A stretch of 64,000 bases of DNA from Candidatus Rariloculus sp. (GCF_965263005.1 NZ_OZ253579.1:1731668-1795667), one strand, 5' to 3'. Positions 27,901 to 63,790 are shown, counted from the stretch's first letter. Notes: a model not told the origin generated them from the letters alone. Program-made: numbers and translations.

Positions 27901-27910
27901 TCCGCCCCCG

Positions 27911-33184: not shown

Positions 33185-33589
33185 ATGCGTGTCGTAGGAA
33201 TCCTCTCGATTGTCGCTTCCTTCGGGTTTGCCGCGGCGCCATCGACTCTGGCGCATCATTCGTTCGCAGCGCAGTTCGACCCGACCAAGCCCGTCACCCT
33301 TGAAGGAACGGTTACCAAGGTCGAGTGGCGAAACCCCCATATCTGGGTATACCTGGACGTCACCGACGCCGATGGCGCTGTGACTTCCTGGGAATGTGAA
33401 GGCGGGGCGCCGAACGCACTCACAAGACGGGGATGGAGCAGCCAAACCTTGAAGCCCGGCTCCACGCTCGAGATTCATGGCTACCTCGCAAGAAACGGGA
33501 CCAATACCTGCAACGCTCGAACGTGGATCTATGAGGGTCGAACCGTGTTCGCTGGGGAAGCCAGCGACGGCGGCCCCTCGCCTGATTAG
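33185..33589 (+). CDS. small secreted A|HH...NPH module protein (DUF6152-like)
   Basis: 134-aa ORF. Signal peptide ...APSTLA|HHSFAAQFDPTKPVTLEGTVTKVEWRNPHIWVYLDV...RRGW...KPGSTLEIHG. Confidence 0.8.
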   Translation: MRVVGILSIVASFGFAAAPSTLAHHSFAAQFDPTKPVTLEGTVTKVEWRNPHIWVYLDVTDADGAVTSWECEGGAPNALTRRGWSSQTLKPGSTLEIHGYLARNGTNTCNARTWIYEGRTVFAGEASDGGPSPD

Positions 33590-33620
33590 AGCCAAAGTCT
33601 TCCGTAACGGAGAACCTCCG

Positions 33621-40939: not shown

Positions 40940-41938
40940 ATGAATAACAACCGTGTCTCGTTTTTGTTGTGTGCCTGCGCTTTGCTGAGCGCACGGGCTG
41001 CAGTTGCTCACCACTCACATGCCAACATCGACCCTGAAGATATTCAGCGTCACACGGGCGTCGTGATGGAGTTCGGCTGGACCATGCCCCACGTTTACAT
41101 AAAGGCGATGGCGCCGAATCCGAACGGTGAACTCGTCGAGTACAGCATCGAGTTACTGCACCCGCCGGGTATGGCACAACGTGGATGGTCGCGCGACAGC
41201 TTCAAGCCGGGCGATCGCATTACTTGGGAAGGACCGGCCGATCGTGACCCGAATCGCTATTACTCCGGCCTTCGGTGGGCGGAGACCGGCAGCGGCGAGC
41301 GCTTGTCCATGGAGAGGTCGGAGTTGCCGACGGAGCCGTCCACGGACTTCAGCGGTATCTGGGTTCGGTCCCTCGGTGGTGCGCGCCCGGATTATCAGCC
41401 GCCGGCGGACTGGCCATACACTGATTTCGCGATGCCGCTCATCGCGAATTTCAACGAAGATCAGAATCCTCAGCTCGATTGTCAGAACCCCGGACCGCCG
41501 AAGTCGACGCTGCTGCCTTACCCGATAAGGATCAGTCGACCGGACGATCAGACGATCGTGATGGATTACGAGCTGCGCGAAGACCCGCGGATCATTACTT
41601 TTGACGCTACACGGGAGCCCGGCGACCCATCAAAGCTCGGGTACTCCGTTGCCAGGCTCGACGGCACCGCGCTCGTGATCGAAACGACCAATTTCGCTGC
41701 CGATCGTTGGGGCATTCAGACCGGCGTCGATTCCAGTGAACAAAAACATCTCGTTGAACGGCTGACGTTCGAGCCGGACGGCCTTGCGATCAACATTGAG
41801 ATGACCGTTACAGATCCGGTGTATCTGGAGGGGCCGGTGGTCGTCAATCGCAGATATGTGAAGGTGCCGGATCGGGAGCTGATCGTGGTCGAGTGTACGC
41901 GGGAGAGCGCTCGCCTGTTTCTCGAAGGTGGGCTCTAG
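40940..41938 (+). CDS. secreted fusion protein: A|HH module + two-Cys module (family member P3)
   Basis: 332-aa ORF. Signal ...SARAAVA|HHSHANID...WTMPHVYIKA...QRGWSRDSFKPGD. C-terminal part LDCQNPGPP...GYSVARLDGTALVIETTNF...KHLVERLTF...VVECT. Confidence 0.8.
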   Translation: MNNNRVSFLLCACALLSARAAVAHHSHANIDPEDIQRHTGVVMEFGWTMPHVYIKAMAPNPNGELVEYSIELLHPPGMAQRGWSRDSFKPGDRITWEGPADRDPNRYYSGLRWAETGSGERLSMERSELPTEPSTDFSGIWVRSLGGARPDYQPPADWPYTDFAMPLIANFNEDQNPQLDCQNPGPPKSTLLPYPIRISRPDDQTIVMDYELREDPRIITFDATREPGDPSKLGYSVARLDGTALVIETTNFAADRWGIQTGVDSSEQKHLVERLTFEPDGLAINIEMTVTDPVYLEGPVVVNRRYVKVPDRELIVVECTRESARLFLEGGL

Positions 41939-41969
41939 GGCCACAGCGACTCAGAGGAGACTTAGCAAC

Positions 41970-43211
41970 ATGCGAACTGTACTTCTTCGCTTTCAAGCGG
42001 CAGTTGCCGTACTGGCAGGAGCGTTCGTCGCGCCCGGTGTCACGCTGGCGCACCATTCGGCTATCGCATTCGACGAGACTCAATTCGTCGACGTGACCGG
42101 CACTGTCACCACGTTCATCTGGCGAAATCCTCACCTGATCGTGCATGTCGAAACCGAAGGGTCCGATGGCGAACCGGAGGTCTGGCCGATCGAAGGTCAG
42201 AGTATCGCGATGCTGATTCGAGCGGGATTCGACCGCGACGTGGTGCACGAAGGCGATCGAATTACGGTCAAGGTGTATCCGATGAAGAATGGGGAGCCGG
42301 GCGGGCTGCTGCAGGGTCTCATTTCTGCCGACGGAACCGCGTATTCGATGGACAGTGCAGATGCGCCGGAAAGGCGGCGCCAACCCGTGCCGTCTCTCGT
42401 TGCTTTTATTCCACCCCCGGAAAGGGAAACATGGCAAATGCGAGAGGAGAAGACGCGGCCGCCGAATCTGCCAATCGTCTCTGATGGCACGGGCACCGGA
42501 GACTCCGAGTCCGCGGGCCTGATGTCGGGAGCGCTCGACCCCGACAACCTCGCCAGGGAACGACCCGTGCCGCCGTTCGACCTGACCGGTGTCTGGCAGT
42601 TTCGCGGCGAGGATGAATGGCGCGCGAACTACGGGTCATACGAATTCAAGCCCATGCCCGAACTGACCCCGAAAGGCCAGGCATTCTACGACGCCTATAT
42701 GGAGGCCGCAGCGCAGGGGGATCGCTACTTCGACCCGACCGCGGAGTGCTACCCGGCCGGGATGCCGCGACTCATGACTCGCTATGGCTCCCTCATGATG
42801 CTGCAGTATCCGACTGTGATCTTCATGGTTTCGCGACTCAGTAACGAGTATCGCGTGATCTTTCTCGACGGTCGCGAGCGCCTGCCCGGTAGCCGACTGG
42901 ATCGCAACTGGAGCGGCGAGTCGCTGGGATACTGGGAAGGTGACACACTCGTCATCGAAACAGAAGGGTTTACGGACGAGAATCATCTGATGCAGGCTGG
43001 TGTCATCACGGGCACCCAGCTCAAGATCACCGAGCGATACCGATCGATCAACGATGGAAATACGCTCGTGATGGACTTTACCTTCGAGGATCCCGAGCAT
43101 TGGGTTGGGGAGTGGAACCACATTAAGTTTCGGGATCGCGTCCTGCGTTCCGACATAAAGGAAGCGAACTGCATACCGGCCGACAATCTCGCGCTACCGG
43201 GCCTGGGCTGA
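41970..43211 (+). CDS. secreted fusion protein: A|HH module + two-Cys module (family member P4)
   Basis: In ORF 41928..43211. GAGGAGA RBS precedes ATG 41970. ...PGVTLA|HHSAIAFDETQFVDVTGTVTTFIWRNPHLIVHVE. C-terminal part AECYPAGMPR...YRVIFLDGRE...ESLGYWEGDTLVIETEGF...ITERYRSI...EANCIP. Confidence 0.8.
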   Translation: MRTVLLRFQAAVAVLAGAFVAPGVTLAHHSAIAFDETQFVDVTGTVTTFIWRNPHLIVHVETEGSDGEPEVWPIEGQSIAMLIRAGFDRDVVHEGDRITVKVYPMKNGEPGGLLQGLISADGTAYSMDSADAPERRRQPVPSLVAFIPPPERETWQMREEKTRPPNLPIVSDGTGTGDSESAGLMSGALDPDNLARERPVPPFDLTGVWQFRGEDEWRANYGSYEFKPMPELTPKGQAFYDAYMEAAAQGDRYFDPTAECYPAGMPRLMTRYGSLMMLQYPTVIFMVSRLSNEYRVIFLDGRERLPGSRLDRNWSGESLGYWEGDTLVIETEGFTDENHLMQAGVITGTQLKITERYRSINDGNTLVMDFTFEDPEHWVGEWNHIKFRDRVLRSDIKEANCIPADNLALPGLG

Positions 43212-44336: not shown

Positions 44337-44831
44337 CGATAGCGTTAAATCGATCTCGAGCACACGTCAACAATCGAAAGCTGACGCGCGAAATCGGCCA
44401 TACAGACGCCTCGTGCGCGCCGCCCGGTAGAGTGGTTCAGTTCAGCCGTCGCTGCAGGCGTAACCGCTGCTCGTGCCCCGCGGGTAAGCCGGGAGTCTGC
44501 CATAGACCTGCGCGGCCAGGCCGTGGGCGAAATCCAGCGTCACCTTGAGCGACAGATACGAATAATGCAGTAGCGACCTGGCGGCATCGGGGCCGTCCTT
44601 CAACCACACGTCCGGCGCGGCCTCGCCTTCGACGGCCTGCCTGTTGCCGCCATTCTGGCACGATTGTACCGATACGTGTCTATACTGTCGGACGGTAGAT
44701 GCCACGTTGGCTGGGGGCTGGCCTTCCGTGGCTTGCCATCTGCGGTCACTGGTGACACGAAGCGACTCCGCCGACCGCGGAGAAGAACTGGTCTTTCAGC
44801 GGACGGCAGGGAATTAACGAGGAGAGAATAC

Positions 44832-47027
44832 ATGGCTACTCAAAAGGCCTGGTTGCTGGGGATAAGTTTCGTCGCCGGCTGCAGCCAGATGACTCCGGAG
44901 ACACAGGTCATCGAGAGCGCGGCCGAGGCGCTCGGCGGGCGCGACCAGGTGCTCGCGGCTTCGACGCTCGTGATCGAAGGCCAGGGAATGGATGCGGGTG
45001 TCGGCCAGAGCCATGCGCCCGATGGGGAACTCTTTGCCTGGAGTCTCGACGACTATCGGCAGACCCTGGATGTCGCGAACGGTCGCGTGCGAACCGAGGC
45101 CACCAGGGTTCCCAGGTTCGACTTTGTGTTTCTTCAGCAGGCCGTCGATCAGGGCCTGGACGGCGACGTGGCCTACAACGTCGGTGGTAACGGCACGGCG
45201 ACACGCGCACCGGGTGCGGTGGCGACGGCCCGGCGCATCGACATGCTGCACCATCCGCTCACGCTGGTGCGAGCGGCACTCGATGCAACGGCAGTGGTCG
45301 GGAACTTGCGGGAAGACGGCGACGCACAGATGGTCGACATCACCACCTCGGAGGGGGACACGCTTTCATTGACTGTCGACGCGACGGGTCTGCCGATGTC
45401 GGTGACCTCGATGGCGTACAACGCAAATCTCGGTGACGTTGCCAGGGAAACGACGTTCGCAGCATACGACACGGTTGATGGCCTGCGGCTGCCGGCCCGG
45501 ATGACGACAACGCTCGATGGGGTGGTGATTCGCGATATCGAGGTCGCGCAGCAGGCGCTGGACGCCGATGCATCGGCGGCGATGGCTCCGGAGGCCGCGA
45601 GCGCCGCCGATCAGCCGCCCGATTCCGCTGCGGTGAACATTACGGTCGAAGAGATCGGCGCGGGCCTCTGGTTCCTTGGCGGCGAGTCGCATAGCAGCGT
45701 GGTGATGGAGTTCGAGGACCATCTGAAAATATGGGAGGTTCCAGTGGATGATCGCCGGGCGCTGGCGGTGATCGCTCAGGCGCGCGAGTTGCAGCCGGAC
45801 AAGCCGCTGACTCACGCGATCGTCTCGCATCATCATTTCGACCATTCGGGCGGCCTTCGAGCAGCGGTGTCCGAAGGCCTGACAATCATGGCTCATGCCG
45901 ACAACGAGGCTCTGTTCCAAGACCTCGTGGAACGCGGGCATTCGATAGTCGAGGATGCGCTGGCGCGCAATCCGCAGCCACTGACGTTCGTGGGCGTCGA
46001 CGGTTCACTGACACTGAGCGACTCGGCGCTCGACGCCGAGATTCATCACATTGACGGCAACCCGCATGCAACGACGCTTCTGATGATCCACGTCCCGAGC
46101 GAACGGCTACTCATTCAGGCGGACGCCTTCGAACCTGGACCGCCGTTGTTCCCGTTCGCCCAGAACATGGCGGAAAACATCGAACGGCTCGGTCTGGATA
46201 TCGAAACTCATGTGACCGCTCATGGAGGAATCGTCACTCACGAAGAGTTCATGGCGAGCCTCCCGACTAGCGTGGCGTCCGCGTTTTCCGGTGACGGCTC
46301 TGCGCTCATCGATATCTGGTCCGGCGGCGGGACCACGTTCGGGGTCTTCGTGCCGAACGAGGACGGCGTGTTTACGGTCGAAGGGGCCGCGGAGCTCGCC
46401 GGCAACGAGCTGCTCGACTACCTCTTCCTGGATCTCGAGGGCAACTACGACGCGGCGGCCGTGGACGTACTGATCGAGGGGCTTTCGACCGTCGATCTCG
46501 CGGAGCGGCCGACGGTGCTTGTCCGGCTTCCGACGATCGAACAGGCCGGTGAGGAACTCACCGGGCAGCGAGTCGAAGAGGTGCTCTTGCGCGGCGCCGA
46601 CGGCGTGATCTTTCCGCACGTTCTCTCCCCTGAAATGGCGGCCGCTACGGTCGGCTTCTTCGATGCCATCGGTGCGCACGTGTGGAGCCCCGACAACCCG
46701 GACGGCAGGATCGTCTCGATGGTCATGCTCGAAGATCGCGAGGCGATCGAGGCTGCCGCGCAGATCGCCGACGTCGGCGGTTACAGCCTGCTGTCATGCG
46801 GAATCGGCAGCCTCGGCAACGACCTGGGCAGCCCGGAAGCAGCCGAGGAGGGGTGCCTCGTGGTCCAGAACAACGCCGACCGCGTGAACATGCCGAGCAT
46901 GCAGTTGGCATTCGATACGGACGTGCTCGAGCGGCGCATCGATCTGGGTTACAGGGGGATCCTGATGCAGATGAACGACGGAACCGCGGACATCGTCAGG
47001 GCCGGCAGGGCGGCGACGGGGCGGTAG
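44832..47027 (+). CDS. lipoprotein: MBL-fold hydrolase fused to a C-terminal HpcH/HpaI-aldolase-like TIM-barrel domain
   Basis: In ORF 44664..47027. AGGAGAG RBS precedes ATG 44832. Lipobox FVAGC. MBL motif AIVSHHHFDHSGG. The last ~250 aa (DYLFLDLEG...VLVRLP...GADGVIFPHV...SMVMLED...) align loosely with HpcH-family aldolases. Confidence 0.7.
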   Translation: MATQKAWLLGISFVAGCSQMTPETQVIESAAEALGGRDQVLAASTLVIEGQGMDAGVGQSHAPDGELFAWSLDDYRQTLDVANGRVRTEATRVPRFDFVFLQQAVDQGLDGDVAYNVGGNGTATRAPGAVATARRIDMLHHPLTLVRAALDATAVVGNLREDGDAQMVDITTSEGDTLSLTVDATGLPMSVTSMAYNANLGDVARETTFAAYDTVDGLRLPARMTTTLDGVVIRDIEVAQQALDADASAAMAPEAASAADQPPDSAAVNITVEEIGAGLWFLGGESHSSVVMEFEDHLKIWEVPVDDRRALAVIAQARELQPDKPLTHAIVSHHHFDHSGGLRAAVSEGLTIMAHADNEALFQDLVERGHSIVEDALARNPQPLTFVGVDGSLTLSDSALDAEIHHIDGNPHATTLLMIHVPSERLLIQADAFEPGPPLFPFAQNMAENIERLGLDIETHVTAHGGIVTHEEFMASLPTSVASAFSGDGSALIDIWSGGGTTFGVFVPNEDGVFTVEGAAELAGNELLDYLFLDLEGNYDAAAVDVLIEGLSTVDLAERPTVLVRLPTIEQAGEELTGQRVEEVLLRGADGVIFPHVLSPEMAAATVGFFDAIGAHVWSPDNPDGRIVSMVMLEDREAIEAAAQIADVGGYSLLSCGIGSLGNDLGSPEAAEEGCLVVQNNADRVNMPSMQLAFDTDVLERRIDLGYRGILMQMNDGTADIVRAGRAATGR

Positions 47028-47469: not shown

Positions 47470-47626
47470 TTACGACGATGCCGGGCGGCTCATCGTGGCC
47501 ATAAATTTCAACATGGCCCTTGGCGACGCATGGGAGCACGCCGACGACGCTTACTGTCCTGAGCCCCTGACCGCGCTGGCGTACCGGTTCGGCGTCAACT
47601 ACCTCGTCTATGCAATGACGCACTGA
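47470..47626 (+). pseudogene. DUF4159-like C-terminal fragment
   Basis: End of ORF 47117..47626: IYDDAGRLIVAINFNMALGDAWEHADD...ALAYRFGVNYLVYAMTH*. This matches the ...GxNxxxYAxTH C-terminus I recall for DUF4159. Confidence 0.45.
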
Positions 47627-48266
47627 CGCGCTTGCACCGTTTGGTGCTCGGGAAGCCGTTGCAACGCCCGCCGGTATCGAAGGCGCGCACGGTAACGGAG
47701 ATCCTGCGGCCTCGGTAGCGCTTGAGGCGGGGCAGCTCATGCGTCCATGCGAGGTTGGTCGCGTAGGGCATGATGAAGACATCGCCATCGACGGCGTCGA
47801 GGTCGATGTATCGTCCTTTTCCGCGATAAGGGCGCAGCCTGAAGATCCGCTCCTCGCCAAACGACAACGTCACTATCGGCGCGCCCGCAATGAGGTTGCG
47901 CCGGCTGTCTCGATGTGCGCTGATGTAGTGGCCGAGCGCACCGTCGTACCAGTTGAGCAACAGGCCGTTGAGCCTCGTGTGGACCGTCGCCTTGCACCAT
48001 CCGAGCAACGGTGCGAGCACGCCGGGAATCGGCAGTGCCGGGCTTTCGGATCCGCTGAACACGTAGCTCCTGCCGTAGGCCTGTTGCCAGCGCGGCGTCT
48101 TGACGAGGCGATGGTGCACGCGGATTTCGTGATAGCTCGTCGGGTGCAGCGACCAGATCGCTTCGAACCGGTCGTCGTCGAGAATCAACGAGTCGGGCAG
48201 GCGGCCCAGATAAAGATGATGCCGCTCGTCGAGGTCGATGCGCCTGAAGCCGCCGGGCTTGCTCAA
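47595..48266 (-). CDS. AlkB-like Fe(II)/2-oxoglutarate dioxygenase
   Basis: 223-aa ORF. LLNWYDGALGHYISAHRDS (HxD), WTHELP (His), RISVTVRAF (RxSxTxR). The start overlaps the stop of the upstream ankyrin gene by 4 nt. Confidence 0.8.
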   Translation of the reverse strand: MSKPGGFRRIDLDERHHLYLGRLPDSLILDDDRFEAIWSLHPTSYHEIRVHHRLVKTPRWQQAYGRSYVFSGSESPALPIPGVLAPLLGWCKATVHTRLNGLLLNWYDGALGHYISAHRDSRRNLIAGAPIVTLSFGEERIFRLRPYRGKGRYIDLDAVDGDVFIMPYATNLAWTHELPRLKRYRGRRISVTVRAFDTGGRCNGFPSTKRCKRVSASLHRRGS

Positions 48267-49945
48267 GAAACGCGGTGCCGCCTGGAGTCGAAATCAGTCT
48301 CGGGGAAGCTCATCCCCTGCAGGTTTCTGCCGCGCATGAGCGTGATCGTTTCGGGCGCGGCCAGGTCACAGTCCGCCTGCTGTTGGCACAATCGCTCGAG
48401 CAGCTCGGCCGTGTCCGCGAAAACCTCTATCGTCGAGCCGCGCCCATGTCCTCCGGCGCGTCCGAGCGCCGCATCGACGGGAGTCGAGCCGTCGGCGTCG
48501 ACGACGTCGATCCTCGCGCCGCGCGCGACGAGCTGCTCGACGACTTCATTCCAGCCCCAGAACGCCGCGCCGTAGAGCGCCGTTCGGCCGATCCCCCTCG
48601 AGCCCCCGCGGCGAGCCGTCGTCCGGGCGTTGATATCGGCGCCTGCATCGAGCAGCAGCGTGACGGCTTCGATCGACTTCAGTTCGACGTCGGGCGCCAG
48701 GTAGTGCGGGATACCGGGCCCGTAGCCGCGCGGATCGCACTCGACGGAGCCGTAGCCTGCCGCCGCCATGAGTGGCGTGATTCCGCCGTCGTTCGGCAGC
48801 TCAAGCAGCGCACCGTGGTCGATCAAGAGCTGCATCGCACTCGTGTCGAACGTCTTCGCCGCGCGCAGCAGCGGCGTTGCGCCGATTGTCAGCATTGAGT
48901 CGCAGCCGCGGTCGTCGCCGATATGACGCCAGATCGGATGCATCTTGAGCTGTACGTTGGGGTTAGCGCCGGCCCCGAGCAGGAGCGCGATGATCTCGAG
49001 GCTCGAAGTCTCGTCGACCGAGGGCTGATCGGGCCGTCCCCCGCGCGGCAGCGTATTGACATCGACGGACGAGTAAAGCGGCGTGCGTCCGAGCCAGTCC
49101 CACTTGTTCGGATTCGCGCCGGCTTCGATCAGGAGCTTCGCGGCGTCGAAATTGAAATTGTCGATCGCGAGAAAAAGCGGCGTCACGTTCTTCGGATCCG
49201 GCAGGTCGATGCCGGCGCCCGCTTCGACGAGCAGCCGCGCGCACTCGGCGCAGCCCTCGCGCGCCGCGAACAGCAACGGCGTCAATCCGCCGAACGGCCG
49301 GTACATGCGGCGCGGTTCGCCGGTGACCTGGCGCGGCCAGTCGTTGACGGCGGAGCGCGCGTCAATTTCGGCGCCATGCTCGATGAGGAGCTTGACGAGC
49401 GCGGGCTGCTGCTGGGCGGCGGCCCACATCAGCGCGGTCTGGCCGCGCCACGACTCTCTCGCATTGACGTTCGCGCCGTGCTCGATCAAGAGCCGCGCGG
49501 CTTCGACGCGGCTCGAGCGCGCCACGACCATAAGCGCGGTCTGGCCGTCGGCGGCCGGTGCGTCGATTTCGGCGCCGGCTTCGAGCAGTTTCCCGATGAC
49601 GGCGGGGTTGCCGACGATCACGGCTTCGGCAAGCGGCGTCGAGCCAAAGTCGTTAGCCGCGTTCGGATCGGCTCCGGCCGCGATGAGGCGATCGACGAGG
49701 GTGAGGCTGTCGTGGTAGACGGCCCAGTGCAGTGCCGTGGTGCCGTCGGGCGCAGGCGCCGTGACGTCGGCGCCTTGCTCGATCGCCGCAAGCGCGGCCG
49801 TGACGTCATTGAAGTTCGCCGCGTCGACGAGAGCGCCGTCGGAGTGGGCCGTTGCGGATACGAGGCCGAGTACGGCGAGCGTGACCACGAGCCGCGGCCT
49901 GGCGGCCCGTGGCAAAAGTCCGGCTGCATTCGACCGCCGATGCAT
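48263..49945 (-). CDS. secreted ankyrin-repeat protein
   Basis: In ORF 48263..50092. At least 10 ANK-like repeats (e.g. TALHWAVYHDSLTLVDRLIAAGADPNAAN, TALMVVARSSRVEAARLLIEHGANVNARE). Signal peptide RPRLVVTLAVLGLVSATAHS. The candidate ATG 49945 lies inside repeat copy E, so the start is uncertain. Confidence 0.8.
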   Translation of the reverse strand: MHRRSNAAGLLPRAARPRLVVTLAVLGLVSATAHSDGALVDAANFNDVTAALAAIEQGADVTAPAPDGTTALHWAVYHDSLTLVDRLIAAGADPNAANDFGSTPLAEAVIVGNPAVIGKLLEAGAEIDAPAADGQTALMVVARSSRVEAARLLIEHGANVNARESWRGQTALMWAAAQQQPALVKLLIEHGAEIDARSAVNDWPRQVTGEPRRMYRPFGGLTPLLFAAREGCAECARLLVEAGAGIDLPDPKNVTPLFLAIDNFNFDAAKLLIEAGANPNKWDWLGRTPLYSSVDVNTLPRGGRPDQPSVDETSSLEIIALLLGAGANPNVQLKMHPIWRHIGDDRGCDSMLTIGATPLLRAAKTFDTSAMQLLIDHGALLELPNDGGITPLMAAAGYGSVECDPRGYGPGIPHYLAPDVELKSIEAVTLLLDAGADINARTTARRGGSRGIGRTALYGAAFWGWNEVVEQLVARGARIDVVDADGSTPVDAALGRAGGHGRGSTIEVFADTAELLERLCQQQADCDLAAPETITLMRGRNLQGMSFPETDFDSRRHRVS

Positions 49946-50061
49946 CCCGCCCGGCGGCGTTGCTCGTCGGTCGAATATTCCAGATATTCTCGCTCCTCGC
50001 GCCTTGCCGGGCGGGCGCCTCGACGGTCTCGGTGCGATGCTGGAATTTCGCCACGGGCTGC
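49901..50061. repeat. ~161-bp MITE/REP-like structured element, copy E
   Basis: GGCGGCCCGTGGCAAAAGTC...GAATTTCGCCACGGGCTGC. Full-length alignment with copies A, B and D. Fills the gap between DUF1552 (stop 50096) and the ankyrin gene. Confidence 0.9.
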
Positions 50062-50095
50062 TAGCCCGCGATTCACGCCTGGCGACGCTCACGGC

Positions 50096-51442
50096 TCAGA
50101 CCTCGGTCAGCTCGCCGGTGCTGTCGCCGACCGAGTCGACCGGCACGCCGGCCCGGTCAAGCAGCGTCAGCAGCAGGTTCGCAAGCGGTGTGCGGTCGGG
50201 GTAGCGCAAGTGCTGATTGCCCTTGATCGAACCTGATCCGCTGCCCGCGACGAGCGTCGGCAGAGGAAAATTGTTGTGCGCATTGCTGTTGCTCATGTTG
50301 CTGCCGTACAGCAGGATCGAGTTGTCGAGCACGGAGCCCGCATCGCCGTCGGGTATCTGGGCAAGCTTCGTCAGGAAATCCGCGAAGACCTGCGTGTGGT
50401 AGCGCTGGACGACGACGAGCTTTTCCATCGAACCCTTGTTCTCGGCGTGGTGCGAAAGCGGATGAAACGCGTCCGGTATGCCGACGTGGGTATACGGCTG
50501 ATTGCTGACTTCCGCTGCAAGCATGAAGCTCACGATCCGCGTCATGTTCGCCTGAAACGCCGCGACGATGAGATCGTGCATCAGGCGTATGAGTTCGTCG
50601 AAGTCTGGCCGCACCACTGGCATGTCCGGCAGCGCCACCGATGACAGGTCTCGTTGTGCGAGCAACTCGATGCGCCGCTCGATTTCGCGGACGCTCGCGA
50701 GATAGTCGTCGACGAGCGTGCGGTCCGAGGGGCCGAGCTTGCGCTTGAGGTCGGCCGCTTCGGCGGCCACCATATCGAGCAGGCTCCGGTAATCGTTTGC
50801 GACTTCGCTTCTTTGCTCGGCCGTCTTGCCGCGGCCGAAGATCTTCTCGAACGCCTTGCGCGGCTCGAATTCCATCGGCATCGGAGTCGTCGGCGCGCGG
50901 AACGAAATCGTCTTGCCGTAGCTACAGCCGTAAGTGCCGTCACAGGCCGCGCCGCCGCCTTCCGCCTCGGTCGCAAGCTCGAGCGATGGCAACGGCGTGT
51001 CCTGGCCGATGTGCGCGGCGGCGATCTGGTCGATCGTGACGCCGGCATAAGGCGCGTGGCTTTGCCGCGGATGCTCGCACGAGAGCCACGTCGCGGGCAC
51101 GATCGCGTGTACGGCCGAACTCTCGCCCGGTTTGTTGCCGAGACCGCTCACGACGGTCAGGTAATCCCTGTGCGCGGCCAGGGGCTCGAGTATCGGCTTG
51201 AAGTCGAAATCGGATCCCTCGATGTCCGGGGTCCAGCGGTTCATCTCGGCGCCGAAGCGCGTGTTGTCCATGATCGCGCCGTGGGGCAAATAGAAAAAGC
51301 CCATGCGTGGCCGGGGCGCAGCGGCCGTCTGCGCGAGCGCGGTCGCCGCCGGTACCATCGCGCTCAGAAGCGGCAGCCCGATCGTGGCGCCGCCGGCCCG
51401 CAAAAGCGTCCGGCGCGACAGGTGCTTTTTCGTGATGAACAT
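50096..51442 (-). CDS. DUF1552-family protein (Tat signal)
   Basis: 448-aa ORF. MFITKKHLSRRTLLRAGGATIGLPLLSAM is the characteristic DUF1552 N-terminus. Lies 2 nt downstream of its usual DUF1592-type partner. Confidence 0.8.
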   Translation of the reverse strand: MFITKKHLSRRTLLRAGGATIGLPLLSAMVPAATALAQTAAAPRPRMGFFYLPHGAIMDNTRFGAEMNRWTPDIEGSDFDFKPILEPLAAHRDYLTVVSGLGNKPGESSAVHAIVPATWLSCEHPRQSHAPYAGVTIDQIAAAHIGQDTPLPSLELATEAEGGGAACDGTYGCSYGKTISFRAPTTPMPMEFEPRKAFEKIFGRGKTAEQRSEVANDYRSLLDMVAAEAADLKRKLGPSDRTLVDDYLASVREIERRIELLAQRDLSSVALPDMPVVRPDFDELIRLMHDLIVAAFQANMTRIVSFMLAAEVSNQPYTHVGIPDAFHPLSHHAENKGSMEKLVVVQRYHTQVFADFLTKLAQIPDGDAGSVLDNSILLYGSNMSNSNAHNNFPLPTLVAGSGSGSIKGNQHLRYPDRTPLANLLLTLLDRAGVPVDSVGDSTGELTEV

Positions 51443-51444
51443 CT

Positions 51445-53910
51445 TCAGTCTCCCCGAGCCTGCAGCGCGTCACCGGTACCGGAATCCGGGACGGCCCGCA
51501 TCCGGAACGCCGCGCTCTGGGCTACACCCAGGACGATCGACTCGAAACTATAGCCTGCCGAAGCGGAATCGGCCACGATGCCGCGCACGGTCGGCATGTC
51601 GTAGTACCTGAGACCCCGCCCGAGCCCATATCTCATGAGTTTCTCCGCCAGCGCCTGAACGAACAGTTCGGGCTCCGCCGTGAGCGCGCGGCGCAACTCC
51701 TCGGGATTGTTGACGGGCGTACCGCCGGCAAGCTCGCCCGTCGAATCGATCGGTAGACCGTTCTCTCGCTCCCGTGTCCGCCATTCGCCGATCACGTTGA
51801 AGTTCTCGAGCGCTTGGCCGAGCGGATCGATGACACCGTGGCAGTGGTTGCAGGACGGTTCCGTGCGGTGGCGCGCCAGACGCTCGCGAACCGTACGGGG
51901 GATTTCGCCCGGCGCCGGCGTCAGGTCGGTCTCGACGCCTGCCGGCACCGATGCCGGCGGTGTCGCGATGACGTGCTCCATGATCCATGCGCCGCGCAGC
52001 ACCGGCGATGTGCGGTCAGGATAGGAGGTCACCATCAGGACGCTGGCCTTGCCGAACAGTCCCCAGCGCCGAGTGTCCTCGAGCTCGACGCGCCGGAACC
52101 GGTCGCCGAGGACGTCGCCGATCCCGTAGTGGCGCGCGAGCCGTTCGTTGACGAAGGTGTGGCTCGCCGTGAGCAGCTCGAGCACGCTGCGTTCCTCGCG
52201 CAGGATGCTGTCGAGATAAAGCGCCATTTCCTCCCGGAAGGCACGGCGCAGATCCTCGTCGAAGTTCGGATAGAGCCGCGGGTCGGGGTCGATTGCGTCG
52301 ACGCGGCGCACACCAAGCCACTGGAACGCGAAGTTCGTCACGAGCGAGGCCGAACGTGGGTCGGCCAGCATGCGCCGAACCTGCTGCTCGAGCACGCCCG
52401 GGTCGCTGAGCAAGCGTTGCTCGGCGAGCTCAAGCAGCGTCTCGTCGGGCCCTTGGCTCCAGACAAAGAACGCAAGCCGCCAGGCGAGCTCGAGGTCGCT
52501 GATGGCGTACGCGGCGCCGGGATCGAGCCCGGCCGGGGGCTCCCCGGGCTCGGCACGGTAGAGGAACTTCGTGCTCCCGAGTACAGCCATGACGCCTTTC
52601 TGGATGCCGGTCTCGAAATTTCCTCCGGCGCGACCGGCATCGTAGAAGCCGAGCAGCGGCTCAAGATCGTCGTCGTCGACGGGACGGCGAAACGCCCGGT
52701 AGGCGAGGTTCTGAAGGATCTCCCGGGCGCACGGACTTTCTTCGCTTTCGGTCTGCGGGTAGCAGACGAAGACGCGGTCGCGGCTTTCGGTTGATTCGCC
52801 AATACCGGTCGGGTTGTACGGCCCGGTGATCTCAAGCCCGTAAAGCCGCGGTATGTCGGGTACGCCTTCGCCCGGCGTCAGCGAGCGCAGCAGGTAATCG
52901 CCTTCGGCGAAGCTGCGCGCGACGAAACTCGCCGCGACATTGCGGTGGCCGGCCCTGACGCTGACGCGAATGTTCCTGAAGCGGTTCCTGATCCGATCGA
53001 CGCCCTGGATCTGTTCCTGGTCGAGAGTTCTCGAGTCTTCCTCGCCGCCGATAAAGTCCTCGTATACCTTGGCGCCGTCGATGGTCACGACGAGCCGGTG
53101 GCGGTACTCGAGCCATCCGTAGGGATAGCCCCGCAATTCCGAGCCCGGAATCGAGGAGATACTGAGGCTGATCTCGTATTCGCCGTCGGCCGGAAAGTAG
53201 TGCTCGACGGCCATCCCGCCGCGCGTCCCGAGCGGCAGCCCGGCGATGTGCGTGGTCCGGTTTTCGCGGTCGGAGCGGTAGCCGGTCCGAACCGGTTCGG
53301 GCGCGGCTTCGCCGATGGCAAGGATGCTGATGTCGCGCGCCGCCGCGAGGTATTGGTCGAGATGCGTAGGCGATACGCTCAGCACTTCGGCAATGTTGTC
53401 GAAACCCTCGCTCGCGATGTCGCTCGGAAGCAGTGCTGCGGCGTCGACCCGAATGCCGAAGAGATCCTCGATTGCTCTTGCATACTCGGTGCGGTTCAGC
53501 CGGTGCAGCGCGACGCGGCCGGGCATTGCGCCGCGTGTCGCGGCCTCCTCGTCGAGCGCAACCTCAAGCGAAGCGACCAACGCGTCCACACGTTCGGCGT
53601 CGGGCCGAGGACCGCCGGGCGGTGGCATGAGGTCGCCGCGCAGCTTGCGCACGACTTTCTCCCAGGTCTCGGGGTCGGCGGAGACGTCGTCAGGCACGGC
53701 CGCGTCAAATGACAAGTCGCCAGCGTATTCGGAATCGTTGTGGCAGTCAGTGCAATAACCGTCGAGGATCGGCCAATGGGCCGAAAGGGCGGCGCCGGGC
53801 GGGGCGGCTTGTTCCGCGCAGGCGCCGAGCAGCGCGATGCCGGCGATTCCGGCCGCGGCGCGCAGTCCGCGCGCTGCCAATGGCCTGTGAACCGAGCTAG
53901 AGCGAGCCAT
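51445..53910 (-). CDS. DUF1592/DUF1588/DUF1585-type protein with two CxxCH motifs
   Basis: In ORF 51445..53985. Start at Met-26 (53910) gives a signal peptide. CTDCHNDSEYAGDLSF near the N-terminus and CNHCHGVIDPLG near the C-terminus. Usual partner of DUF1552. Confidence 0.8.
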   Translation of the reverse strand: MARSSSVHRPLAARGLRAAAGIAGIALLGACAEQAAPPGAALSAHWPILDGYCTDCHNDSEYAGDLSFDAAVPDDVSADPETWEKVVRKLRGDLMPPPGGPRPDAERVDALVASLEVALDEEAATRGAMPGRVALHRLNRTEYARAIEDLFGIRVDAAALLPSDIASEGFDNIAEVLSVSPTHLDQYLAAARDISILAIGEAAPEPVRTGYRSDRENRTTHIAGLPLGTRGGMAVEHYFPADGEYEISLSISSIPGSELRGYPYGWLEYRHRLVVTIDGAKVYEDFIGGEEDSRTLDQEQIQGVDRIRNRFRNIRVSVRAGHRNVAASFVARSFAEGDYLLRSLTPGEGVPDIPRLYGLEITGPYNPTGIGESTESRDRVFVCYPQTESEESPCAREILQNLAYRAFRRPVDDDDLEPLLGFYDAGRAGGNFETGIQKGVMAVLGSTKFLYRAEPGEPPAGLDPGAAYAISDLELAWRLAFFVWSQGPDETLLELAEQRLLSDPGVLEQQVRRMLADPRSASLVTNFAFQWLGVRRVDAIDPDPRLYPNFDEDLRRAFREEMALYLDSILREERSVLELLTASHTFVNERLARHYGIGDVLGDRFRRVELEDTRRWGLFGKASVLMVTSYPDRTSPVLRGAWIMEHVIATPPASVPAGVETDLTPAPGEIPRTVRERLARHRTEPSCNHCHGVIDPLGQALENFNVIGEWRTRERENGLPIDSTGELAGGTPVNNPEELRRALTAEPELFVQALAEKLMRYGLGRGLRYYDMPTVRGIVADSASAGYSFESIVLGVAQSAAFRMRAVPDSGTGDALQARGD

Positions 53911-54871
53911 CCAACCTACCCTGCCACCATAAACCGCCGTAAACGTTGGCGATGAACCGGTCGCGGTTGTGGCCCCATGCCGCATCGAACTCGGCCGTCA
54001 CGCCGGCGGCGACCATCTCTTCCACGCTCTTTCCCTGTCGCATCAGGGTCGCCACGCGTTCGCGAACGGTGGAGATCATCTCGACCTGTTCCTCGAGGTG
54101 GTCGCGCGACTGCGCGGGCCCGGCGCCCGGCACGATAATCGTGTCGCTGTCGCTCATGTCGATGAGTTTCTGCGTCGCGTCCATCAAGCCGCCGATCCAG
54201 CCGCCCGTTGCGTAGTCGAGGACGGGATACGCGCCGGCCGAGACGGCGCCACCCGTGGCAATGACGTTGCGCTTGAGGAAAAAGACATAGATATCGCCGT
54301 CGGTGTGGGCTTCGCGAAGATGCCCGTACTCGATCCGTTCGTCACCGAGATCGAGTGCGATCGGCTGCGGGTCCGACGAAAAAAACGTCTCCGTCGGCAG
54401 GGCGGCGGCCGGCCGTGGCTCGTAGGTGCGATCCTGCCAGTCGACATAATATTCCGTGCTCATCCACAGCCGGGTGTTCTCGTGCGCGACGATTTTCGCG
54501 CCTTGCCGGCCGAAAGTCTCGTTCGCACCCGTGTGCGCGGTGTGCCAATGGGTATTGAACAGCACGTCGACGGGCGCATCGCCGAGCATCGCGGTGACGC
54601 GCCCGATGAGCCCGGCCGCGTTTTCGGGCGAGCCGCTGTCGACGAGTACGGTACCGCCCGTGCCCTGCAGGAGCAGCACGTTTCCGCCCGCGCCCGTGAT
54701 CTGGGTGAGACCGTCTCGCAACGCGAGCGCGGCGATCGGCCCGGATCCGGATTGAGCGAAGGCGGAGCGCGTGAGGCCGCCGAGCCCGGTGCACGCCGCC
54801 GACGCGCACGCTGTGCCCAGGGCAAGCCGCAGAAAGCCGCGCCGGTCTTCGTGAGCAGCCATGGGGGTCAT
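53897..54871 (-). CDS. Tat-signal MBL-fold metallo-hydrolase
   Basis: In ORF 53897..54964. M(TP)MAAHEDRRGFLRLALG (twin-Arg). VLVDSG...LFNTHWHTAHTG (HxHxxH variant) ...HTDGD. The stop overlaps the downstream start by 14 nt. Confidence 0.8.
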   Translation of the reverse strand: MTPMAAHEDRRGFLRLALGTACASAACTGLGGLTRSAFAQSGSGPIAALALRDGLTQITGAGGNVLLLQGTGGTVLVDSGSPENAAGLIGRVTAMLGDAPVDVLFNTHWHTAHTGANETFGRQGAKIVAHENTRLWMSTEYYVDWQDRTYEPRPAAALPTETFFSSDPQPIALDLGDERIEYGHLREAHTDGDIYVFFLKRNVIATGGAVSAGAYPVLDYATGGWIGGLMDATQKLIDMSDSDTIIVPGAGPAQSRDHLEEQVEMISTVRERVATLMRQGKSVEEMVAAGVTAEFDAAWGHNRDRFIANVYGGLWWQGRLDGSL

Positions 54872-54964
54872 TCCGCGTGACTGCGTCGGGTGTTCCAGCG
54901 GATCAGGTCTGCGGCGCGCGACGTGAACCCCGGTCGGCGCCGCGGACGCGCGTCCGTGATGCAT

Positions 54965-56083
54965 CTACTCCCCCGCGTTGATGTCGAAGAAGTCGATCGA
55001 TTCCGGGTCTTCGATGTACGTTTCCTCGTGAATCGGGGTGACGCGCTCGGGAATCGGATCGCCATTGGCTATCGCCTCGGCGACACGCTGCTCGAAGTCG
55101 CGCTCGCCCGTGAGCGAGTTGCGCACCGCACCGTTGCCTTCATGACACGAGTATTCGTAGATCCGGTAGCCGGGCTGAGTCGTGTACATCATCCGGACCG
55201 TAAGGGGCGCCGTGTAGGTGACCGGATCCTCGATGGTCGCGACGTACTCGATCATTTCCGGATCGACGCGCGTGAACCGCTCCATGATCGTCATCGCTTC
55301 GCTGTGACGCGTGCCGTTGCCGTTGCCGCCGATGCTGGTCATGTCGGTGAGGTTCCGCGTCTCGACAACGAGCGTGTCGCCGTCCCAGTAACCGCGGGAA
55401 TTGCCGAGGTACTGCCGGACGCCGTCGTCCATGTGCGGCCGCTCGCCGAGCTTGATGACGCGCGTGTCGTGAATCATCTCGTAGGAGATTGCGACAGAGT
55501 CCACGGTCTGAACTACTCTGAGCCCGTTGCCGTAAACGACGGGGAACTGCGAGCCGAGTATCCCGCGCGTGATGCACCGGTCGTAGAGCGTGAAGTCCTC
55601 CAGACTGTCGAATGGACCTGGCCCGAAGCTGCCGCGGTCGCTCGGTGCGGCGCGCGCGAGTCCCGCCTCGGTCATCGCGGGCGTCCGCCCGTCCGACGGG
55701 TCGATGACGAGCGACGTGTACCCGAACGTCCGCGTGCCAGCCTCACCACGGCGCGAGAAGCCCTGCTCGTTGACGTGGAAATTCCGCGTTTCCTCGTCCG
55801 CCGCGGCGCGCTCGGCGAACTCTTCCGGTGTGAGTTTCTGACGGTCGCCGAATTGCGCGGGGCGTTCGCGCGGCACGCTGCGCATGTCGTCCGTGCTCCA
55901 GGTCCCTTCGAGGCTCGGGTGACCCCATGACGTCCGTGGTACTTGCCAGGCCGGATCGACGATGGCCGCAGCCGACGCCTCGGCCGGAACCTGGCCGCTG
56001 CCGACTTGCGCGTTTACGGCGCTCGCAGCGAGCGCTGCGGCGATCACGGCGGATATATACGGTGTTCGTGGTTCCTTGCGCAT
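54965..56083 (-). CDS. secreted 'GxWxGDTLV' two-Cys module protein (family member P5)
   Basis: 372-aa ORF with signal peptide. LYDRCITRG...NSRGYWDGDTLVVETRNL...HSEAMTIMERFTRVD...YEYSCHEGN. Confidence 0.8.
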   Translation of the reverse strand: MRKEPRTPYISAVIAAALAASAVNAQVGSGQVPAEASAAAIVDPAWQVPRTSWGHPSLEGTWSTDDMRSVPRERPAQFGDRQKLTPEEFAERAAADEETRNFHVNEQGFSRRGEAGTRTFGYTSLVIDPSDGRTPAMTEAGLARAAPSDRGSFGPGPFDSLEDFTLYDRCITRGILGSQFPVVYGNGLRVVQTVDSVAISYEMIHDTRVIKLGERPHMDDGVRQYLGNSRGYWDGDTLVVETRNLTDMTSIGGNGNGTRHSEAMTIMERFTRVDPEMIEYVATIEDPVTYTAPLTVRMMYTTQPGYRIYEYSCHEGNGAVRNSLTGERDFEQRVAEAIANGDPIPERVTPIHEETYIEDPESIDFFDINAGE

Positions 56084-56229: not shown

Positions 56230-56559
56230 ATGTCTGACGATCGGAAGAACCTCGATCGCCGCTCGTTCACGGGTGGTGTGCTTGGCGCCACCCCAGGCAT
56301 CGGTGCCGCCGCATTGCTGGCTGATGAGCCGAAGGCCCAGCAACCCGCTGCGCCGCGCAGCGCCAATGCCCGCGAGGGCGAGGGCTACCTGATGGGTGTG
56401 GCGACGCGCAACGACGAGAACGACCGCGCGGATCTCGTGATCCTCGATGCCGAGCACATCGCCGACGGCCCCGTCGCGACGGTCAAGCTGCCGATGCGGG
56501 TCGTGGGCCAGGTGCACGGCTGGTGGGTGCCGGAAGCGCAGCTTCCGGCGGCATCCTGA
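56230..56559 (+). pseudogene. carotenoid-oxygenase (RPE65/CCO) family remnant: Tat-like N-terminus plus last ~55 aa only
   Basis: 109-aa ORF. DRRSFTGGVLGA, then EGEGYLMGVATRNDENDRADLVILDAEHIADGPVATVKLPMRVVGQVHGWWV, the conserved CCO C-terminus. About 370 aa of the beta-propeller are missing. Confidence 0.6.
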
Positions 56560-60055: not shown

Positions 60056-60454
60056 TTGGGGCGCCCCGTGTACTTGAGACTCCTCCGAGCTCGCGCAAGG
60101 ATCGGCGCGCTCACGTTGGCCGCGGCGAGCTGGCCCGCATACGCTCATCACGGCGGCGCCGTCGAGTGGCAACAGAGCGTGCACGGCCCGGTCACAGGCT
60201 TTGCGACTGATTTCGCGTTCCGCTTTCCGCACGTCACTGTCTTCATCGATGTCAGCACTGACGGCGCCACCGAGAACTGGGCCGTCACGACGCGTTGGAC
60301 GCCGACGATCCTGCGACAGCACGGTTGGACTCGCAACTCGATCAAACCCGGCGATACGGTAACCGCGACTTACGCGCCGCACGTGACGAATTCGACGGTT
60401 GTGCAGATGCGCACGATCGAGGTGAACGGTGACGAGCTACCGCTGCAGTTCTGA
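60056..60454 (+). CDS. small secreted A|HH...PH module protein (divergent DUF6152-like)
   Basis: 132-aa ORF (TTG 60056, alternative GTG 60068). ...AAASWPAYA|HHGGAVEWQ...FRFPHVTVFIDV...QHGWTRNSIKPGDTV. A TATAAT lies at 60027-60032. Confidence 0.7.
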   Translation: MGRPVYLRLLRARARIGALTLAAASWPAYAHHGGAVEWQQSVHGPVTGFATDFAFRFPHVTVFIDVSTDGATENWAVTTRWTPTILRQHGWTRNSIKPGDTVTATYAPHVTNSTVVQMRTIEVNGDELPLQF

Positions 60455-61289
60455 CGGGTCCGCTCGACGGCGCGTGCGGACGTGCTTGTCTCGCGTTTGT
60501 ATCGTGAGCTTCGTCGCTGTGTTGTTCGTATTCGCCATTCCCCTTTCGTCGCCGGGCCAGCAGTCTCGAGACGCCTTCGACCCGCGCGATCTCGCCGGAC
60601 ACTGGGATCGCAGCACGCCGATCGAGTCTTTCGCCCCTACGCCTGGTGCAACGCGCGAGGCAAACGCCGCCGAAACCGCGCAAGCACCGTTCACGGTGCA
60701 GGGCAGGGCGCTGTTTGAGGCCAACATGCCGGGCTACGGACCGCGGCGCCAGATGCGACGGAACGACCCGCTCGGACGCTGCGAACCGATGGGCCTGCCG
60801 CGCCTGCTCAATGTCGAGATCGTCGCCCCGCACTCAACGTTCGAGATCGTGCAAACACCGGGGAGAATTCTGCAGTTCTTCGAGTACCGTCACGACTGGC
60901 GCGAGATCTGGATGGACGGCCGCTCGCTTCCGGCGCTCGAGGACACCTATCCGAAGTGGAATGGCTACTCGGTCGGCCGCTGGGAGGGCGACACCCTCGT
61001 CGTCGAGTCGATCGGATTCGACGATCGAAGCTGGCTCGACAAGCTCGGCTATCCGCATTCGGAGGCGATGCGCCTCGAGGAGCGGTATCGGCGTATCGAC
61101 GCCGATACGCTCGAGCTCACGATGACGAGCATCGATCCCGTCGTCTACAGCGAACCTTTCCGGAGCGACCGGAAACTGTTTCACTTGAATCGCGACAAGG
61201 CCGCTGGCTGGGACGAGCAGATTTACTGTATCCCTGCCGAAGAGATATCCTACCAGGACATCGTCGGAACAGGTAACACGATTGAGTGA
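60429..61289 (+). CDS. secreted 'GxWxGDTLV' two-Cys module protein (family member P6)
   Basis: 286-aa ORF. GAGG lies 7 nt before GTG 60429, which overlaps the upstream gene by 26 nt (alternative GTG 60474). LGRCEPMGLPR...WREIWMDGRS...YSVGRWEGDTLVVESIGF...HSEAMRLEERYRRID...QIYCIPAEE. Confidence 0.8.
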   Translation: MTSYRCSSDGSARRRVRTCLSRVCIVSFVAVLFVFAIPLSSPGQQSRDAFDPRDLAGHWDRSTPIESFAPTPGATREANAAETAQAPFTVQGRALFEANMPGYGPRRQMRRNDPLGRCEPMGLPRLLNVEIVAPHSTFEIVQTPGRILQFFEYRHDWREIWMDGRSLPALEDTYPKWNGYSVGRWEGDTLVVESIGFDDRSWLDKLGYPHSEAMRLEERYRRIDADTLELTMTSIDPVVYSEPFRSDRKLFHLNRDKAAGWDEQIYCIPAEEISYQDIVGTGNTIE

Positions 61290-62677: not shown

Positions 62678-63790
62678 ATGAACTTAAAGAGATGGAATCG
62701 TTTGATTGTCGCGTCGTGGGTGAGTCTCGCCGTAGCCTTGAGTCTGGCGGCGCAACCCGCATCCGCGCAGTCGCAGCGAGGGCGCACGACAGCGGAGTGC
62801 GTTTCGCTTGCCGAGCAGTATCCCGATCTCGGCACGACGCAGAGCGTGTCGGCGAACCGGGAGTTCACGACGGTCTGGGGCTCGTTTGAACTACCGGGCG
62901 GGCCTTGCGGCTATGCATCGGCCGAGGAGCATTACAGCGTGCTGCTCGAGGGCGCGAAGAGCCGCGGCGGCCCGACGGAGCACACGATCGCGAGCCTGCC
63001 CGACTGGAGCGGGCACTGGGGCACTGAGAACGGAACGGGCGAGCTTGCGATCGTCGGCCGGCACTCGACGCCCGAAGGCATGGCGGTGCGGCTTACGCCC
63101 GACGCACGCGAGGTCTTTATGCACGACTACCGCATGTGGCGCGAGGACCACGCCATCGACCCGATCTCGTTTTGCCTGCCGCCGAACTTTCCGCGCTGGT
63201 TCACGGAGTACGGCTTCAGGGAGCAGTTTCTGGCGCCCGACAAGACCGTGCTCGGCAGCGAGATGGTTAACCAGTTCAGGCGCGTATTCACCGACGGGCG
63301 GCCGCATCCGTCCGACGAATGGCTCACGAACGAATGGCTCGGCTACTCGATCGGCTTCTGGGATGAGGACGTGCTGACGATCTGGACCAAGGGCATCAAG
63401 GAAGGCGTTCTGCAGCGCAACATGCCTCGCCAGACGAACCAGATGGAAGTCATCGAGCGCTGGCGCAGGGTCGATCCCGTCGCGGCCGGTGTCGATATCA
63501 CGCCGGACACGTTGGGCTCAGGGTACATTCCCAACGAACGCCTGGAAATCGAGGTCACGATGTACGACCCGACCTTCGTCGAGCCGTGGCATACCGTCGT
63601 TGCGTATTACAAGGAAGACGACCGCACTGCGGAGGCGAAGGAGCGGATCTGGCCGCACCAATGGGACTGCGTCGAGGGTTCGCAGTGGTTCATCACCGAT
63701 GAAGGCATCGTCAGTCAGTACGCACCGGGCGAGAAGCCTGACGTTACGAACCCCGATTTCTGGTTCGACGAGGAATACGTGCATCAGTAG
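62678..63790 (+). CDS. secreted two-Cys module protein, divergent (family member P7)
   Basis: 370-aa ORF with signal peptide. SFCLPPNFPR...FRRVFTDGRPH...GYSIGFWDEDVLTIWTKG...QMEVIERWRRVD...QWDCVEG. Confidence 0.7.
   Translation: MNLKRWNRLIVASWVSLAVALSLAAQPASAQSQRGRTTAECVSLAEQYPDLGTTQSVSANREFTTVWGSFELPGGPCGYASAEEHYSVLLEGAKSRGGPTEHTIASLPDWSGHWGTENGTGELAIVGRHSTPEGMAVRLTPDAREVFMHDYRMWREDHAIDPISFCLPPNFPRWFTEYGFREQFLAPDKTVLGSEMVNQFRRVFTDGRPHPSDEWLTNEWLGYSIGFWDEDVLTIWTKGIKEGVLQRNMPRQTNQMEVIERWRRVDPVAAGVDITPDTLGSGYIPNERLEIEVTMYDPTFVEPWHTVVAYYKEDDRTAEAKERIWPHQWDCVEGSQWFITDEGIVSQYAPGEKPDVTNPDFWFDEEYVHQ

Follow-up and report, generated by a model that had tools for sequence, protein, structure and literature searches.

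A four-gene proteobacterial form of the DUF1592-type/DUF1552 gene pair, with ankyrin-repeat and metallo-beta-lactamase-fold partners

The gene pair that encodes a PSCyt3/PSD (DUF1592-type) protein and a DUF1552 protein is reportedly a feature of Planctomycetes and Verrucomicrobia, a description said to go back to Studholme in 2004. The pair of those phyla has the domain architecture PSD3-PSD5-PSD4-PSCyt3-PSD2 in its first protein and the DUF1552 gene directly after it, and we find the same arrangement in a stretch of 64,000 nt from Candidatus Rariloculus, an uncultured gammaproteobacterium (hereafter the window; coordinates are counted from its start). The window version differs in being proteobacterial, single-copy and lipoprotein-anchored, and in being joined by an ankyrin-repeat protein and a metallo-beta-lactamase (MBL)-fold protein. 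These four genes, which we call the core module, are a conserved operon-like unit in approximately 100 proteobacterial genomes and metagenome contigs. The pair by itself has been described but is uncharacterised (He 2017, PMC5615132), which agrees with the initial annotation of the window, where it was taken to be a widespread gene pair with no assigned function. We suggest that the pair is what is known and that its four-gene form with ankyrin and MBL partners is what is new; the literature searched under the DUF and PSCyt family names yielded no paper mentioning either partner or the four-gene form.

A second described system invites comparison. The DUF1501 plus PSCyt1/PSCyt2/PSD1 module of the Planctomycetes-Verrucomicrobia-Chlamydiae (PVC) group has a four-gene form that includes a WD40 protein, and electron transport has been suggested for it (Kamneva 2012, PMC3542564). 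Like the module considered here, it combines a protein exported by twin-arginine translocation (Tat) and resembling an enzyme, a multi-domain haem-c protein and a repeat-protein subunit, but the Pfam families differ throughout, the repeat protein here is built of ankyrin and not WD40 repeats, and the DUF1501 module has no MBL. Few uncharacterised gene pairs of environmental bacteria are as abundant as those of PSCyt/PSD cytochromes with DUF1552 or DUF1501, which have gone two decades without an assigned function. In the proteobacterial version, which is single-copy and has four components, the pair is joined by a defined set of partners, a putative ankyrin scaffold and an MBL. Its function is testable, since some of the lineages that carry it have cultured relatives (the named members of the DUF1552 subfamily belong to Steroidobacteraceae and Pseudohongiellaceae); such tests would be much harder in planctomycetes, with their dozens of paralogues.

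The module lies in an array of six open reading frames (ORFs), all called on the minus strand of the window. Furthest upstream is P5 (54965-56083), a predicted exported protein of 372 aa belonging to what we call the two-Cys family. The four core genes follow: a predicted Tat-exported MBL-fold protein of 324 aa (53897-54871), a DUF1592-type di-haem cytochrome c of 821 aa, predicted to be a lipoprotein (51445-53910), a predicted Tat-exported DUF1552/HXXSHH protein of 448 aa (50096-51442), and a predicted exported ankyrin-repeat protein (ORF 48263-49945, or 48263-50092 when read from the ancestral GTG). Last comes a gene with a TTG start for an AlkB-like 2-oxoglutarate (2OG)-Fe(II) oxygenase of 223 aa, which is predicted to be cytoplasmic (47595-48266). 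Recomputed from these coordinates, the junctions are a 93-nt gap, a 14-nt overlap, a 2-nt gap, a 150-nt gap and a 4-nt overlap, so that the six-gene array of the initial annotation is reproduced in its ORFs, its five junctions, both CxxCH motifs and its domain calls. The MBL start is ambiguous: ATG 54964 would leave a 0-nt gap to P5, and ATG 54871 agrees better with orthologues and with the Tat motif.

The four core genes are conserved together and tightly spaced. Close relatives have MBL homologues 61-97% identical to that of the window, followed by the DUF1592-type, DUF1552 and ankyrin genes, while the genes that flank the module differ among them (RPE65, malic enzyme or Band_7). A scan of genomes, one per species, with an MBL alignment as query returned 45 loci. 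Wherever MBL identity reaches 44% and the flanks are long enough, in 27 loci, all three partners are present; none of the three occurs in six loci with MBL identity of 39% or less and long flanks; and in two loci with 34-36% identity the DUF1592-type gene is still next, at the contig end. An independent scan of metagenomes, anchored on more distant DUF1552 genes through a 15-sequence DUF1552 alignment, returned 80 loci in which the DUF1552 protein is 47-67% identical and the GC content ranges from 0.47 to 0.71. The ankyrin gene comes after DUF1552 in 46 of the 48 metagenome loci with at least 2 kb downstream, and the 23 loci with full flanks contain the ankyrin gene without exception and the MBL gene in 18 cases. 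The coupling of the pair to an exported MBL, and the conservation of these three genes elsewhere that the initial annotation had set out to be looked for, are therefore real in genomes (27 of 27) and metagenomes (18 of 23) alike. The ankyrin protein, which that annotation had overlooked as a partner, is the most faithful partner of the pair.

Gene order within the module is not fixed. With M for MBL, 92 for DUF1592-type, 52 for DUF1552 and A for ankyrin, the metagenome loci show four orders, M-92-52-A (8 loci), 92-52-M-A (6), 92-52-A-M (2) and M(-)-92-52-A (2), and an alphaproteobacterial locus (L045) has the rearranged order 92-52-M-A with genes overlapping by 4-8 nt. The gap between the DUF1592-type and DUF1552 genes has a median of 6 nt (n = 96 loci), and at most of the other junctions the spacing does not exceed 20 nt. 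Chance falls far short of explaining the arrangement, given that approximately 100 independent loci show it; the same set of genes is kept through rearrangement, and this is therefore strong evidence for a single functional unit.

The cytochrome of the window matches PSD3 (83.6 bits), PSD5 (70.6), PSD4 (148.2), PSCyt3 (98.5) and PSD2 (73.7) in Pfam, all above the family cutoffs, and has a weak cytochrome c match at its N-terminus. Two haem-c motifs, both named in the initial annotation, are confirmed by translation: CTDCH at 53740-53754, and CNHCH at 51838-51852 (residues 687-691, within the PSCyt3 domain). Intact orthologues with identities of 44% to 96% retain both. A lipobox, LLGAC in the window, precedes the first haem motif by 22-25 residues in 24 of 28 orthologues. 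Searches of the PDB with the single sequence and with a 14-sequence profile gave nothing usable, and NCBIfam holds no model for the cytochrome, for DUF1552 or for P5. A precedent for what such a protein might do is Cbp2D of Cellvibrio japonicus, a c-type cytochrome that donates electrons to a lytic polysaccharide monooxygenase, its cytochrome domain reducing the copper enzyme (PMC8981238). Like the window cytochrome it has a DUF1587 (PSD3) domain with CxxCH, and it passes electrons to a separate metalloenzyme; the likeness, drawn from the description of Cbp2D, is confined to that one domain. Cbp2D differs in being secreted, in carrying carbohydrate-binding and YceI-like domains, and in lacking PSD4, PSD5 and PSCyt3 domains as well as a DUF1552 partner.

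The DUF1552 protein is an unambiguous member of Pfam PF07586 (HXXSHH; E 2e-82, 277.7 bits against a cutoff of 30), a family of 15,499 clusters at 50% identity. Its HxxSHH motif reads HPLSHH (50447-50464, verified by translation), its Tat motif is SRRTLLR, and H112, D223, D240, E255, H327, H331 and H389 are invariant across the family. Of the 11 top matches that Foldseek found in the PDB for an AlphaFold2 (AF2) model of the protein, 8 belong to the alkaline-phosphatase/sulfatase superfamily, all of them weak. We considered a formylglycine sulfatase role and rejected it: the C/S-x-P-x-R motif is not conserved, nor is the Cys in CEHPR. Pfam scans at relaxed thresholds (E up to 10) brought out no further families in DUF1552 or the P-family proteins. 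In one metagenome population, represented by locus L001 and also by L002, the codon of the invariant Trp119 reads TAG (L001 13781-13783), against TGG in the sister genome L007. The stop, whether a true nonsense variant or an error of sequencing, divides the DUF1552 gene call into two.

The ankyrin protein matches its Pfam families with E down to 4.7e-58 (Ank_2, 194 bits; Ank, 185 bits; both above cutoff) and has a predicted signal peptide. It is 560 aa long from ATG 49945 and 609 aa from the ancestral GTG at 50092. Pseudomonas aeruginosa offers a partial precedent in AnkB, which is reportedly a periplasmic ankyrin protein encoded beside the KatB catalase and needed for full KatB activity (Howell 2000). 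On that account the two systems would share an exported ankyrin-repeat protein encoded next to a haem enzyme, and would differ in that AnkB is small where the window protein has 560 aa and a conserved CxxC, and in that the haem partner is a catalase and not a c-type cytochrome. The CxxC, which reads CAEC (49241-49252), lies inside a repeat helix and is kept in at least 93% of 71 orthologues. It is one of three conserved Cys pairs in exported core proteins, the others being C167/C173 of DUF1552 and, outside the haem motifs, C383/C394 of the cytochrome. These pairs could serve as disulfides, as a metal site or as a redox relay.

The MBL-fold protein has the Tat motif RRGFLRL and a clear Pfam Lactamase_B match (E 1.5e-13, 51.5 bits against a cutoff of 22.7). 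Its metal motif, HWHTAH (54533-54550), departs from the canonical HxHxDH, which provides for both metal sites, in that the usual Asp is replaced by Ala. Among the module-linked homologues the Asp position holds D, E, A, L, G, V or P and the next position H, Q, A, V or N, while the elements HWH, AHENT and AHTDGD are retained. A single-metal centre is likely because the second-site ligands vary so freely. The best NCBIfam match is TIGR04559, a hydrolase of a 'quinoprotein relay system', at 75.9 bits against a cutoff of 280; the model for subclass B1 beta-lactamases scores 54.3 against 200; and the closest solved relative is chlorothalonil dehalogenase (Chd, 6uxu; E 4e-9). The SoxH-related quinoprotein relay MBLs (TIGR04558, TIGR04559) and Chd resemble the window protein in being periplasmic, MBL-fold and encoded beside periplasmic redox enzymes, but the window MBL falls far below the TIGR04559 cutoff, carries the HWHTAH motif and belongs to a group in which the second metal site is degenerate family-wide.

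The four core proteins, we propose, form one lipoprotein-anchored periplasmic electron-transfer enzyme complex, a proposal that we consider about evenly poised between right and wrong. The broader suggestion of the initial annotation, a shared periplasmic and redox-related role, is reasonable for these four because all of them carry export signals and both haem motifs are conserved. We infer the physical complex, the direction of electron flow and the role of each subunit as follows. The complex would form on the periplasmic side of a membrane, with DUF1552 as its catalytic metalloenzyme. The core of this protein is probably like that of the alkaline-phosphatase superfamily, with conserved His, Asp and Glu ligands; folding and cofactor uptake in the cytoplasm would explain its Tat signal. 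The di-haem lipoprotein would act as a wire, linking DUF1552 electrically to either the respiratory chain or a dehydrogenase that partners it. An obligatory scaffold or assembly subunit would be provided by the ankyrin protein, and the MBL would be a mononuclear-metal accessory hydrolase, directed at the substrate or the product and dispensable in about a fifth of the lineages.

Several lines of evidence are consistent with this assignment of roles. A redox function is supported by the conserved CxxCH motifs, by the Cbp2D precedent, by the 'quinoprotein relay' best match of the MBL, and by the pyrroloquinoline quinone (PQQ) dehydrogenases that lie beside the module. Quinohaemoprotein PQQ dehydrogenases adjoin it in at least five loci, in varied orientations and 49-57% identical to the L077 protein (L077 11024-13162; L093 11114-13120; L106 10744-12879; L036 7763-9787; L081 4085-4900). 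The Tat signal, the invariant His, Asp and Glu residues and the predominance of sulfatases and phosphatases among the fold matches support an enzymatic role for DUF1552, and the AnkB-KatB system and the WD40 subunit of the DUF1501 module are precedents that would favour a scaffolding role for the ankyrin protein. PQQ dehydrogenases of more distant kinds were seen in eight or more additional module loci, and the window has none.

A number of observations weigh against the proposed complex. The AF2 model of DUF1552 is of low confidence (predicted local distance difference test score, pLDDT, 57; predicted TM score, pTM, 0.61), all of its fold matches have E > 1e-3 and TM scores of 0.2-0.35, neither the single sequence nor a 45-sequence profile found a match in the PDB, and we identified no catalytic nucleophile (Ser, Thr or formylglycine). 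Five of the 23 full-flank metagenome loci have no MBL within reach, and a shared substitute for it was sought in the MBL-less loci and not found: the genes flanking them are unrelated and comprise a TonB-type barrel, KdsB, PyrG, an M19 peptidase, CstA, a Vgb-lyase-like propeller, an aldo-keto reductase and DinB. With its second metal site degenerate, the MBL may be no hydrolase at all. Promoter and terminator consensus scans across the array were uninformative, and a hairpin insert at the head of the ankyrin gene, described below, may uncouple that gene in the window strain.

MBL-fold and alkaline-phosphatase-fold enzymes are mostly hydrolases, and since DUF1552 and the MBL both appear to have folds of this type, the module might instead serve hydrolytic scavenging, the two enzymes cleaving phospho-, sulfo- or carboxyl-esters of an imported compound while the haems are structural or act as redox sensors. 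PSCyt genes have been found near sulfatase genes, and carbohydrate processing has been suggested for them (He 2017, PMC5615132). We think this explanation unlikely, if worth keeping in mind; the retention of both haem-c motifs over so wide a range of identity argues for a working cytochrome, DUF1552 lacks the sulfatase motif as noted above, and neither a transporter nor a glycoside hydrolase is consistently adjacent in the loci inspected. A bolder version of the redox role would make the module a periplasmic relay enzyme in which a substrate or intermediate is held covalently on a Cys pair (the ankyrin CxxC, DUF1552 C167/C173 or cytochrome C383/C394), oxidised by DUF1552 with the haems taking up the electrons, and then hydrolysed off by the single-metal MBL, alongside PQQ dehydrogenases. 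This would be the first biochemical role for the PSCyt/PSD-DUF1552 class, with its 15,499 clusters, and we hold it to be decidedly doubtful. The precedent of a periplasmic ankyrin protein paired with a haem enzyme, together with the Cys pairs conserved in three subunits, also brings to mind a device against peroxide or haem stress like that of KatB and AnkB, in which the di-haem protein would be a peroxidase stabilised by the ankyrin protein. Such a device seems very improbable, given that the haem motifs are approximately 635 residues apart inside PSD domains, unlike those of bacterial di-haem peroxidases, that no peroxidase family in Pfam or NCBIfam is matched, and that DUF1552 and the MBL would be left unexplained.

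Two further alternatives concern which genes belong together. That the genes are mere co-directional neighbours with no shared function gains something from the uninformative promoter and terminator scans, but it is scarcely credible for the four core genes, which approximately 100 loci keep together through at least four rearrangements and across the whole GC range of the metagenome set; for these genes we regard it as refuted, and for P5 it still stands. Conversely, all six genes might be one functional unit tying the two-Cys (P5/DUF6152) family to the DUF1592/DUF1552 system, as the initial annotation had proposed. P5 shares the strand of the module and is only 93 nt upstream of it; orthologues stand in that place in the two closest relatives alone (L050 and L051), with more distant relatives there in L034 (43% identical) and in L077 and L078 (approximately 30%); a family member is found within 1-4 kb of the module in many Rariloculaceae loci; and two-Cys/DUF6152 genes recur beside other periplasmic dehydrogenases (PQQ, GMC, GSDH). 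The case on the other side is stronger. P5 is absent from L001, L005, L006, L007 and L017, where the MBL is 77-79% identical, and any member of the family is absent from seven related loci and from 73 of the 80 metagenome loci. Where P5 homologues are 62-70% identical, their neighbour is a GMC oxidoreductase or a PQQ dehydrogenase, and the module is not in the vicinity. That P5 adjoins the module is no surprise, the family being so dense in this lineage, with at least 7 genes in the 64-kb window and 108 match regions in 930 kb of loci, or approximately one gene per 8-9 kb, a density sufficient for chance adjacency. The AlkB-like gene at the other end is predicted to be cytoplasmic and is limited to one clade. 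We consider a six-gene unit improbable, and the two-Cys link does not hold up: P5 is a facultative local neighbour in the Rariloculus lineage and no conserved part of the module. This removes a false lead.

P5 itself has no match in Pfam or NCBIfam, and a PDB sequence search with it gave nothing usable. Its C-terminal domain is common to five window paralogues (tblastn, E from 3e-24 to 4e-6), and the family alignment shows two invariant Cys residues, C170 and C313. The DUF6152 N-terminal domain, present in the window paralogues at 28248, 40940 and 41928, is absent from P5. In an AF2 model (pLDDT 66) its C-terminal part forms an 8-stranded barrel that weakly matches those of fatty-acid-binding protein (FABP), lipocalin and avidin, a hint that P5 binds a small ligand. 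Other two-Cys/DUF6152 genes of the window lie at 28248-29486, 33477-34457, 40940-41938, 41928-43211, 60429-61289 and 62678-63790. Around P5 paralogues in loci L052 and L055 the family is clustered into dense islands of 4-5 genes per 17 kb, and both split forms (DUF6152 plus a protein of approximately 250 aa) and fused forms are found.

The AlkB-like protein matches Pfam 2OG-FeII_Oxy_2 (E 1.6e-16, 61.6 bits against a cutoff of 31.2), has H118-R-D as its HxD motif, and scores 23.4 bits against a cutoff of 231 for the TIGR00568 equivalog; it lacks a signal peptide. Its TTG start overlaps the TGA stop of the ankyrin gene, giving the 4-nt overlap, and the gene is restricted to loci with an MBL of 77% identity or more, in all of which the overlap is present. 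In L004, outside the genus, a protein occupies the corresponding position but proved unrelated. The AlkB-like gene is an addition of a genus-level clade, a lineage-specific rider and not part of the machine.

The 150-nt gap between the DUF1552 and ankyrin genes contains most of repeat copy E (49892-50066, no strand), a palindromic element of 170 nt that resembles a miniature inverted-repeat transposable element (MITE). It belongs to a family, D1, with four copies in the window; a repeat search places the others at 8414-8588, 23842-24016 and 27902-28076, with a partial copy at 27435-27483. Copy E folds as one hairpin (-112.8 kcal/mol, z = -6.8) and is MITE-like in its terminal inverted repeats, its several copies and its absence from the orthologous site in relatives; it has no match in Rfam, and an Rfam scan of the whole array gave no informative match. 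In L050 and L051 the ankyrin gene begins with GTG, 3-6 nt past the DUF1552 stop, and alignment finds no repeat at the junction. The corresponding GTG in the window, at 50092, is 3 nt past the DUF1552 stop, and the repeat enters the gene approximately five codons later. Because this alignment shows the site without the element, copy E is a recent, strain-specific, in-frame insertion into the region that encodes the ankyrin signal peptide. It keeps the frame open, for 609 aa, and carries ATG 49945, which restores a normal signal peptide; this is a mobile hairpin element that has entered a signal-peptide coding region without breaking the reading frame. The initial annotation, which described a gap of approximately 150 nt filled by copy E, was right about the size and about the repeat, but the gap is not intergenic in origin and is better read as an insertion in the 5′ end of the ankyrin gene. 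L001 carries a different, shorter insert at this junction.

The surroundings of the module vary. Between lptG and the module L001 and L051 have approximately 4 kb, where the window has approximately 21 kb (26300-47600), and the extra DNA includes several P-family genes, a TonB-dependent receptor, a LysR regulator and a 787-aa protein (44664-47027) with weak Lactamase_B and HpcH/HpaI matches; the segment looks like a variable island. On the other side of the array, at 56230-56559 on the plus strand, a 109-aa ORF is the in-frame internal-deletion remnant of a Tat-exported RPE65/carotenoid-oxygenase-like gene, with residues 1-42 fused to residues 449-521 of the intact 521-aa gene that occupies this place in L051 and L001 (76-88% identity). 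A repeat finder also located a tandem duplication of an 88-nt unit at 15263-15438, the two copies of which are 86% identical.

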